This document shows positions 11,014 through 61,536 of a DNA stretch of 64,000 nt, in pieces. The notes beneath the pieces are model-generated. The model made no database searches. It was not told where the DNA came from and was given only the letters and a program-made list of their open reading frames with translations. Origin of the DNA: Candidatus Micrarchaeia archaeon (GTDB lineage Archaea > Micrarchaeota > Micrarchaeia > Micrarchaeales > Micrarchaeaceae); the NCBI GenBank assembly GCA_049967695.1, contig JBMFSF010000001.1:925-64924 (forward strand). The letters are read 5' to 3'. Numbering within the stretch: the first letter of the stretch is position 1; each line of letters begins with the position of its first letter. Made by a program: the position numbers and the translations under genes.

Positions 11014-12171
11014 TTACAGCTTGAAATCTCTTCCCATGAAAAGAATGATTATGCCAGCAGATATCGATATGATTGCTGCATATGAATAAGAGTAAAAAGG
11101 GCTTATCATATAAAGCAGCCCCATGACAAGATTGCCTACGAACAAACCCAGACTTCTAGAAGCAGTTAACGCCCCCATTTTTCTTGACTGGCTCACTTTC
11201 GGGTTTACCAGAGATATTATTGTAGGCTCAAATGTTTCGACAACACCCAACGAAGCGCCAAGGGTTGCAACATCTATGTAATATACCCATACCGGCAGGC
11301 TTAACATGTAGGAAACCCCAAGCAGAAAAGTGCCAACACCTGAAAGCACATAGCCAAAAATTCCCAGCTTCTTGACAACGTTCTTTGCCCTTTTGCCTAT
11401 GAAGTATCCTATTAATGCGGAAACTGCAAGATAAAGCATGTAAGAGCCTATTCCTGTTATCTTTGTAGAAGCTTGTGCTATTGTAAGTATAGGAAAGCCC
11501 AGGCTATAATAGCTAAAGCCATAGAGTGCAGTTGCAATTATGACTCCTTTGTATGTGGTAGAATACTTAATTTTTATGTTTTTGGCAGCTTTTTTTATGT
11601 TTTTGGTGCCTACCTTGACAAGCGCAAGGCAGAGTGAAGATATAAGCAATGGTATTATAGTTATTATAAAAATCGTTCTGAGCGGAACATGAAGTGCCAC
11701 AAGTATTATAAGATATGTAGTCGCAACTATGCCTCCGCCTATATCTAAAGCATGCATAAATCCGAATGCCTTTCCCCTATTTTTCTTTGAAGAAGCTTCA
11801 GTAAGCATTGCCCTTCTTGCTGGAGATCTGAAGTTCCTAAACCACCATCCTATTGAAAATATGGATACTGCCTCGGCAGAGTTTGACGCCAATCCTGTAA
11901 ATGAGAGAAGAGGTATTAATAGATTGCCAAAAAGTGCAACCCTCTTTCTTCCATATCTATCTGCAGCTATGCCTCCAAAATAACCCATCAATGACCCTAT
12001 TCCATAAGATAATGCAGTAGCGATTCCGAATACATAGACTGGTGCATGCAAAACAAGGACAAGGAATATCGGGAAGCCTGCTATCAGGGCCTGGTATCCT
12101 GCATCAGCGAAGAATGCAGACAGAGATAATAAGACAACATCTTTTCCTAGTGCATCTGTTCTGCTGCTCAT
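11014..12171 (-). CDS. MFS transporter
   Basis: 385 aa with about 10-12 hydrophobic segments and MFS motif A-like GGIAADRYGRKRV between TM2 and TM3. Confidence 0.75.
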   Translation of the reverse strand: MSSRTDALGKDVVLLSLSAFFADAGYQALIAGFPIFLVLVLHAPVYVFGIATALSYGIGSLMGYFGGIAADRYGRKRVALFGNLLIPLLSFTGLASNSAEAVSIFSIGWWFRNFRSPARRAMLTEASSKKNRGKAFGFMHALDIGGGIVATTYLIILVALHVPLRTIFIITIIPLLISSLCLALVKVGTKNIKKAAKNIKIKYSTTYKGVIIATALYGFSYYSLGFPILTIAQASTKITGIGSYMLYLAVSALIGYFIGKRAKNVVKKLGIFGYVLSGVGTFLLGVSYMLSLPVWVYYIDVATLGASLGVVETFEPTIISLVNPKVSQSRKMGALTASRSLGLFVGNLVMGLLYMISPFYSYSYAAIISISAGIIILFMGRDFKL

Positions 12172-28767: not shown

Positions 28768-28785
28768 TAAGTTGCAAAATGAAAG

Positions 28786-28873
28786 CGGGCCCGGCGGGAT
28801 TTTCATGTTCATTTTGAACCCGCGACCATTAGCTTAGAAGGCTACCGCTCTGTCCAAGCTGAGCTACGGGCCC
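28786..28873 (-). tRNA. tRNA-Arg(TCT) with a 13-nt insertion (putative intron) in the T-loop
   Basis: Minus strand reads GGGCCCG TA GCTC AGCTTGGACA GAGC G GTAGC CTTCTAA GCTAA TGGTC GCGGG TTCAAAATGAACATGAAAAT CCCGC CGGGCCC G. The cloverleaf is perfect apart from one 27:43 mismatch and a 20-nt T-loop. Removing 13 nt gives the canonical TTCAAAT. CCA is not encoded. Confidence 0.8.
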
Positions 28874-28907
28874 GTTGCAATTAATTTTATCAAACTAATA
28901 TAAATAC

Positions 28908-61424: not shown

Positions 61425-61536
61425 GCCAGGGTGGCGGAATCTGGTAACGCGTACGCCCGGAAAAAAATTCTCGTAAGCGTATGGCTTCTCGAAGCCTTTT
61501 GGGTTCAAAAGAAATCTGAAAATCCCAACCCTGGCG
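61425..61536 (+). tRNA. class II (long variable arm) tRNA, most likely tRNA-Ser(GGA), with two 13-nt insertions (anticodon loop 37/38 and T-loop 59/60)
   Basis: GCCAGGG TG GCG GAATCTGGTAA CGC G TACGC [CCGGAAAAAAATTCTCGTAA] GCGTA T-GGCTT-CTCG-AAGCC-TT TTGGG [TTCAAAAGAAATCTGAAAAT] CCCAA CCCTGGC G. The acceptor, anticodon and T stems are perfect. The 3-bp D stem, long variable hairpin and G73 fit Ser. Both loops are 20 nt instead of 7. Confidence 0.7.

Follow-up and report, generated by a model that had tools for sequence, protein, structure and literature searches.

The described system closest to the locus analysed here is the pre-tRNA-Cys of ARMAN-2, from which the recombinant epsilon2 splicing endonuclease (EndA) of the same organism cuts a 13-nt intron of the hBH class at tRNA position 59/60 in vitro (Fujishima et al. 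2011, PMC3239211). A tRNA-Pro with introns at 53/54 and 59/60 was described as well (PMC3239211), and the pre-tRNA-Cys was later reused as a standard BHL substrate (PMC3488258, PMC12397907). Positions 53/54, 56/57 and 59/60 are all catalogued as non-canonical intron positions in the review of Yoshihisa (2014, PMC4090602). Within the ARMAN-2 enzyme, Hirata et al. assigned roles to individual residues, namely an ARMAN-specific loop (G158-H165) with the essential K161, the catalytic triad and the residues of the dimer (PMC3488258).

Here, a single tRNA gene was analysed in a window of 64,000 nucleotides, the whole stretch of DNA under study, from a genome of Candidatus Micrarchaeota. The evidence leads us with high confidence to a functional, single-copy tRNA-Arg(UCU) gene that carries a 13-nt protein-spliced intron at position 59/60.

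The tRNA-Arg(UCU) gene and its genome

The gene is read on the minus strand, a point that a sequence-only reading of the window had left unstated, and it spans window positions 28786-28873, 88 nt including the intron. Its first half reads GGGCCCG UA GCUC AGCUUGGACA GAGC G GUAGC CUUCUAA GCUAA and its second half UGGUC GCGGG UUCAAA[AUGAACAUGAAAA]U CCCGC CGGGCCC G. The elements of the locus are as follows.

28897..28904, minus strand: TATA-box-like word TTTATATT, 24-31 nt upstream of tRNA position 1, read from sequence
28786..28873, minus strand: tRNA-Arg(UCU) gene, 88 nt with intron; CCA not encoded; discriminator G
28813..28873, minus strand: 5' exon from the bulge-helix-bulge (BHB) parse, 61 nt, tRNA positions 1-59, ending ...GCGGG UUCAAA
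28836..28838, minus strand: anticodon UCU, decoding AGA and AGG, from sequence
28800..28812, minus strand: intron, 13 nt, A-UGAACA-UGAA-AA, between tRNA positions 59 and 60
28786..28799, minus strand: 3' exon, 14 nt, made up of U60, T-stem strand CCCGC, acceptor strand CGGGCCC and discriminator G
28774..28785, minus strand: T-rich stretch CTTTCATTTTGC, adjoining the discriminator, read from sequence

The sequence-only reading had proposed a cloverleaf tRNA-Arg with anticodon TCT and a 13-nt insert in the T-loop, and the Rfam tRNA model bears this out. RF00005 scores 55.9 bits on the gene against a gathering score of 29, with model positions 1-71 all matched, the anticodon in a 7-nt loop and a 14-nt insertion placed in the T-loop; this score lies 15-20 bits below that of intron-less peers. 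ARAGORN, which had been suggested as a check, did not call the unspliced gene either by default or with introns allowed, and found only a tRNA-Asn in the window. Removal of the 13 nt in silico left a 75-nt tRNA with the T-loop UUCAAAU, exactly the loop that deletion had been expected to restore, and ARAGORN called this form Arg(tct). In the predicted spliced form G18 and G19, G53, U54, U55 and C56, A58 and C61 are all present. Judged by the general archaeal promoter consensus, TTTATATT is a putative promoter element, and CTTTCATTTTGC is a probable terminator.

All stems are perfect with the exception of position 27:43, which is a G.A mismatch (window 28845, 28829). The same non-Watson-Crick pair tops the anticodon stem in all 30 relatives' parsed Arg(UCU/CCU) genes, and in this comparison it looks like a lineage-specific structural feature and not a defect.

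The source genome (0.89 Mb in 65 contigs, 94.8% complete, approximately 38% G+C) belongs to Candidatus Micrarchaeota, an ultrasmall group within DPANN, in keeping with the earlier suggestion that a T-loop intron carries lineage information. A second intact tRNA-Arg(UCU), which would have made the interrupted copy a candidate pseudogene, had been named as a reason to doubt the intron. None was found in the 94.8% complete assembly, and the gene in the window is its sole tRNA gene with a UCU anticodon. A permissive search for further UCU anticodon stem-loops returned 37 matches, and a tRNA body was present only at the gene in the window. Among the arginine codons of long open reading frames AGA accounts for 38.4%, the second most frequent, and AGG for 45.4%, together 84%. 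Since this is the sole UCU tRNA in a genome with such codon usage, the gene must be functional.

Splice motif and its variation among orthologues

The motif around the intron is composed of the following parts, where an arrow marks a predicted cut.

28815..28818, minus strand: 5' strand UUCA (U54 U55 C56 A57) of the central helix H, pairing with the intron in the minimum free energy (MFE) fold
28812..28814, minus strand: AA↓A, predicted 5' splice site, cut between 28813/28812, within a loop, or within a bulge that one U:A pair closes
28806..28811, minus strand: inner part UGAACA, with a possible 1-bp U:A closing pair and the 4-nt loop GAAC
28802..28805, minus strand: 3' strand UGAA of the central helix H, the intron word pairing with UUCA in the MFE fold
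28799..28801, minus strand: 3-nt bulge AA↓U, unpaired in the MFE fold, with the predicted 3' splice site between 28800/28799; its U becomes U60

Whether the T arm or the entire gene is folded, the MFE structure has a T-stem of 5 bp, a helix of 4 bp between UUCA and UGAA, and the 3-nt bulge AAU, which is placed between UGAA and the T-stem strand CCCGC. These are the same parts, from GCGGG to CCCGC, into which the T arm had been drawn from the letters. The whole-gene fold has a z-score of -3.1, and the pairs of the UUCA:UGAA helix have probabilities of 0.61-0.72. In the MFE fold the 5' cut site UUCAAA↓A falls within a 9-nt loop. The inner U:A pair that would close a second bulge is disfavoured by the energy model (-4.6 vs -8.0 kcal/mol) and is possibly a vestige of the inner helix h'. 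Under the strict hBHBh' definition one U:A pair at most closes the second bulge in this copy, and the same pair covaries among relatives with inserts of equal length. On its predicted structure the insert is best filed as a relaxed bulge-helix-bulge of the hBH/BHL class at 59/60, with only the 3' bulge fully formed. Relaxed geometry at 59/60 had also been the claim of the sequence-only reading, and both the MFE fold and a single frame among the orthologues described below agree with it.

The insert contains a second UGAA, which offers a rival pairing for UUCA (-6.6 vs -8.0 kcal/mol, pair probability about 0.13). The resulting ATGAA-C-ATGAA repeat was considered as a mark of an origin by duplication and rejected; it looks coincidental, because the 13-nt inserts of relatives are without it. 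A weaker competing fold is its sole effect.

Orthologues were sought in 60 relatives of the same family and order, where the gene was recovered in nearly all, and scanning named genomes for the pattern contributed another 80 loci, nearly all from Candidatus Micrarchaeota and including closed genomes such as Candidatus Micrarchaeum A_DKE, with an intron of 32 nt, and strain ARM-1, with one of 13 nt. Extraction by a BLAST-anchored parse yielded a comparison set of 82 distinct full-length tRNA-Arg(UCU) orthologues, mostly of Candidatus Micrarchaeota. Relatives' genes agree with the gene in the window through the end of the 5' exon and diverge beyond it. An insert is present at the identical site in 66 of the 82, with lengths of 13-41 nt and unrelated sequences, and all 66 fit the one frame UUCA, AA↓N, inner hairpin, UGNN, AN↓U, with UUCAAAU as the mature loop. 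The other 16 orthologues are intron-less, and their T-loop is exactly that predicted for the spliced form, UUCAAAU; in one of them (L028) the entire T-arm is identical to the predicted spliced T-arm. The intron-less genes come from some Micrarchaeota and from matches labelled Woesearchaeota, Iainarchaeum, Aenigmatarchaeota and Nanoarchaeum.

What is constant and what varies among the 66 interrupted orthologues follows the parts of the motif. The central helix has all four pairs in 57 and three of four in 9, with UGAA, UGGA, UGAG, UGGG, UGCA, UGCG or UGAU as the intron word. The 3' bulge is AAU, AUU, ACU or AGU, constantly 3 nt with a final U, and the third base of the trinucleotide at the 5' site may be A, U, C or G. 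An inner closing pair, of five pair types, is found in 65 of the 66, where about 37% would be expected by chance; the inner stack averages 3.35 bp, which shuffling of the inner part reduces to 0.65 bp, and the inner helices of introns of at least 20 nt average 4.1 bp.

The orthologues with 13-nt inserts, ten distinct variants in a gap-free alignment, permit a more direct comparison. All 250 cells (100%) hold standard pairs, compared with 26-47% when the 3' partner was slid by 1-3 columns, and T-stem and acceptor are entirely paired in 10/10 sequences. Within this class the closing pair covaries, being U:A in six, A:U in two, C:G in one and G:C in one. The pattern of the T-loop inserts is far beyond chance. 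In the anticodon stem the copy in the window has U28:A42 where its relatives in the 13-nt class have C:G, a compensatory change that is, on comparison of the sequences, the signature of a maintained gene.

Two side observations concern this comparison set. In a subclade with the T-stem GUGGG/CCCAC (L022, L016, L032, L040, L052, L069, L098, L105) UGAA is replaced by UGCA or UGCG, which interrupts the central 4-bp helix midway with a U55.C mismatch; such a mismatch is unusual among BHB helices, and this subclade tolerates it and passes it on. A Micrarchaeota-type Arg(UCU) gene was also met in metagenome-assembled genomes labelled Methanothrix or Marsarchaeota (L037, L038, L065, L082, L086, L107, L111). 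These carriers are probably mis-binned or mislabelled contigs and not signs of a wider distribution, because several of their inserts are letter-identical to those of records labelled Micrarchaeota (L082 to L088 of A_DKE, L065 to L009).

Splicing enzymes, predicted processing and alternative readings

A broad-specificity EndA had been predicted for this genome from the intron, and the gene found there fits that expectation. The single EndA gene is an open reading frame of 384 aa (contig C8) with no internal stops, in which Pfam recognises PF02778 and PF01974, the N-terminal and catalytic domains, in two stretches each. It aligns as a full-length homologue with the ARMAN-2 enzyme in PDB 4FZ2 (E 1.5e-134, 53.7% identity, residues 2-384 to 3-387), and by this domain layout and alignment it is of the three-unit epsilon2 type. 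Its specificity loop GTYKASEK keeps K159 (K161 in ARMAN-2), the catalytic triad is kept as Y234/H248/K279 (Y236/H251/K282), the dimer residues as K222 and D354 (K224, D357), and the residues of the L10 pocket are conserved. The enzyme is predicted to form a homodimer, with K222 and D354 at the dimer interface, and to cleave relaxed BHB substrates. K241 of the ARMAN-2 enzyme is Q239 here, a difference that is probably unimportant, because the K241A mutant is active (PMC3488258). An RtcB ligase is also encoded in the source genome (E 1.2e-169), and a full-length EndA of the epsilon2 type is present in 59 of 61 relatives, one per genome.

In the processing that we propose, the gene would be transcribed as an 88-nt precursor with the 13-nt intron in its T-loop. 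U54-A57 (UUCA) would pair with UGAA in a helix that stacks on the 5-bp T-stem, with AA↓U left as a bulge of 3 nt on its 3' side, and the homodimeric three-unit epsilon2 EndA would cut both sites and release the 13-mer. RtcB would then ligate A59 to U60 and restore the canonical T-loop UUCAAAU, and CCA would be added after ligation. Both cleavage and ligation on this precursor are predictions from the gene and its genome. With an inner helix of just one pair, the 5' cut would depend on the relaxed specificity of the enzyme, which has been demonstrated for that of ARMAN-2 (PMC3239211).

The exact position of the cuts is the point at which an alternative survives best. Excision may be real and yet proceed by cuts at 57/58 or 58/59, or with another enzyme cutting the 5' site in the loop. 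The A-runs that flank the intron (UUCAAA↓A ... AA↓U) let cuts at 57/58, 58/59 and 59/60 give one and the same product, no defined bulge marks the 5' site, which falls within a loop of 9 nt, and the Leu-CAA gene of the same genome appears to parse best as 58/59 with a 5-nt bulge. Against this, all 66 intron-bearing orthologues share a frame in which the 3-nt bulge adjoins the 4-bp helix and the hairpin starts 3 nt after UUCA. The standard BHB rule applied to that frame puts both cuts at 59/60, and the ARMAN-2 precedent was assigned to 59/60 as well (PMC3239211). From the BHB rule, and from a 4-3 frame that is invariant among the orthologues, we infer that both cuts fall at 59/60, and we consider the other positions unlikely.

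It is less probable still that the 13 nt are retained and that the mature tRNA works with a 20-nt T-loop. The observation that could be raised in its favour comes from assembled metatranscriptome contigs over the orthologue of Candidatus Micrarchaeum A_DKE, in which the spliced joint was not seen; this is a weak negative, because a 3' exon of 14 nt is poorly captured by contigs built from 31-mers. Among public sequencing runs, none matched the window and no RNA run was listed for ARM-1. In one metatranscriptome run (X1) the 5' exon of the same orthologue has a depth 4-7 times that of the intron and flanks, and this excess was set aside as evidence for splicing because the exon is common to many strains and the contigs, up to 135 kb, are of DNA scale. 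If the insert were retained, U54, U55 and C56 would be tied up by pairing, and the contacts between T-loop and D-loop would be disrupted. Retention also agrees poorly with inserts of 13-41 nt that are conserved only where the splice motif demands it, with the 16 orthologues that have identical exons and no insert, and with the dedicated enzymes, EndA and RtcB, kept in the genome.

Finally, a decaying pseudogene or an insert created by assembly, for which one could cite the missing ARAGORN call and the G.A mismatch at 27:43, is hardly credible for the sole tRNA for AGA where AGA and AGG make up 84% of arginine codons, with its other stems perfect, a compensatory U28:A42 facing the relatives' C:G, a G27.A43 common to all 30 relatives' parsed genes, and the same interrupted layout in dozens of independently assembled genomes, closed ones included. 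The spliced 59/60 intron thus remains the preferred reading of the locus.

Other interrupted genes of the genome and comparison with known systems

Many tRNA genes of the source genome have introns, and T-loop inserts of the same kind are found in six others.

Arg-UCG: T-loop insert of 30 nt at the same site, strict hBHBh' with an 8-bp inner helix
Arg-CCU: T-loop insert of 19 nt at the same site, strict hBHBh' with a 4-bp inner helix
Ala-GGC: T-loop insert of 13 nt, motif like that of tRNA-Arg(UCU)
Cys-GCA: T-loop insert of 15 nt, same frame as tRNA-Arg(UCU)
Class-II Ser-type gene, window 61425-61536, plus strand: T-loop insert of 13 nt, same frame
Leu-CAA, contig C47:2245-2341, minus strand: T-loop insert of 12 nt, less regular

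Neither by default nor with introns allowed did ARAGORN find the T-loop-interrupted genes. When it was run on five of them (Arg-UCU, Arg-UCG, Arg-CCU, Cys-GCA and Leu-CAA), none of the unspliced forms was called and all five were called after excision in silico.

Three of these genes have further features. The Ser-type gene (112 nt) was missed both by ARAGORN and by Rfam at E<=1. Its T arm reads UUGGG UUCA AA↓A GAAAUC UGAA AA↓U CCCAA; the anticodon loop contains another insert of 13 nt. Without both inserts it is called tRNA-Ser(GGA) by ARAGORN, with an unusual C33, and when spliced at the T-loop only it is called Thr(cgt) with an intron. The tRNA-Cys(GCA) gene (contig C27:~5931-6015, plus strand), with a 15-nt intron at 59/60, the T arm GAGGG UUCG AC↓A UCCAAUGA CGAA AU↓U CCCUC and the discriminator U, was likewise missed by ARAGORN and Rfam; in this genome it corresponds to the pre-tRNA-Cys of ARMAN-2, the substrate of the published cleavage assays. 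The 12-nt insert of tRNA-Leu(CAA) falls outside the 59/60 frame, and its best parse, at 58/59, pairs GUUC with GAAU and leaves a 3' bulge of 5 nt. If this parse is right, the Leu-CAA intron would be shorter and more relaxed than all 66 Arg(UCU) variants.

Beyond the T-loop, candidate inserts were noted in the D-loop of Leu-UAA, Gln-CUG, Ser-GCU and a Thr-GGU-like gene, the last with a candidate anticodon-loop insert as well, and in the anticodon stem or variable region of Val-UAC and Ala-CGC. The positions of all D-loop, anticodon-stem and variable-region inserts were judged by eye against intron-less paralogues, and the loci are C4:~11983-12091 (plus strand), C33:7953-8062 (minus), C4:42952-43053 (minus), C24:10024-10127 (minus), C5:9477-9564 (plus) and C2:13350-13433 (plus).

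One may speculate that the 59/60 intron of tRNA-Arg(UCU) is ancestral to this order of Micrarchaeota and has repeatedly shrunk to a fixed floor of 13 nt, composed of 1 nt, 1 bp around a 4-nt loop, 4 nt and 2 nt. This tentative idea, to which we lend limited credence, is suggested by the ten distinct 13-nt variants with their covarying closing pair, and by the 13-nt inserts in other tRNAs of the source genome and in the tRNA-Cys of ARMAN-2. If it were true, the epsilon2 endonuclease would have its minimal substrate at 13 nt, and what it recognises even in relaxed BHL introns would be a true BHB motif in miniature, with an inner helix of 1 bp.

For annotation the consequence is practical. Standard finders miss the tRNA-Arg(UCU) gene and a minimum of eight further tRNA genes with introns in this genome, or match them only in part, and because tRNA-Arg(UCU) is among those missed, automated annotation would declare AGA undecodable. 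The 66 distinct intron variants and 16 intron-less alleles at one site furthermore form a clean series of natural mutants for studying the rules by which the epsilon2 endonuclease accepts a substrate.

The locus adds one more well-supported case to the Micrarchaeota with an epsilon2 endonuclease and many non-canonical tRNA introns, the T-loop included; it extends an established picture and does not open a new question. The likeness to Thermoproteales and other Crenarchaeota with strict hBHBh' introns is that protein-spliced introns occur outside 37/38, also in the T-loop, and that many tRNA genes are interrupted. In those organisms, with their (alpha-beta)2 EndA, as in the present genome, introns outside 37/38 co-occur with an EndA of broad-specificity type. 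The enzyme here differs in being a three-unit epsilon2 homodimer, whose ARMAN-specific loop (ASL) is of independent origin from the crenarchaeal CSL (PMC3488258), and the inner helix of the copy in the window, at most 1 bp, differs from that of strict hBHBh' introns. The comparison with ARMAN-2 (Candidatus Micrarchaeum acidiphilum) shows a close likeness. Its EndA (PDB 4FZ2 / 9W2K) and that of the source genome align end to end, with the ASL lysine and the Y/H/K triad conserved, and its pre-tRNA-Cys(GCA) shares with the present gene the intron length of 13 nt, position 59/60, the relaxed motif made up of exon helix, 3-nt bulge, 4-bp helix and loop, the phylum and the endonuclease type. The differences are that the tRNA is Arg-UCU, that the species is another one, and that cleavage is here predicted from sequence. 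Because length, position, motif class, phylum and enzyme type match those of the characterised ARMAN-2 case, the intron is ordinary for its group: the 59/60 intron of tRNA-Arg(UCU) is of a kind already known, and only the tRNA and the species differ from that case.
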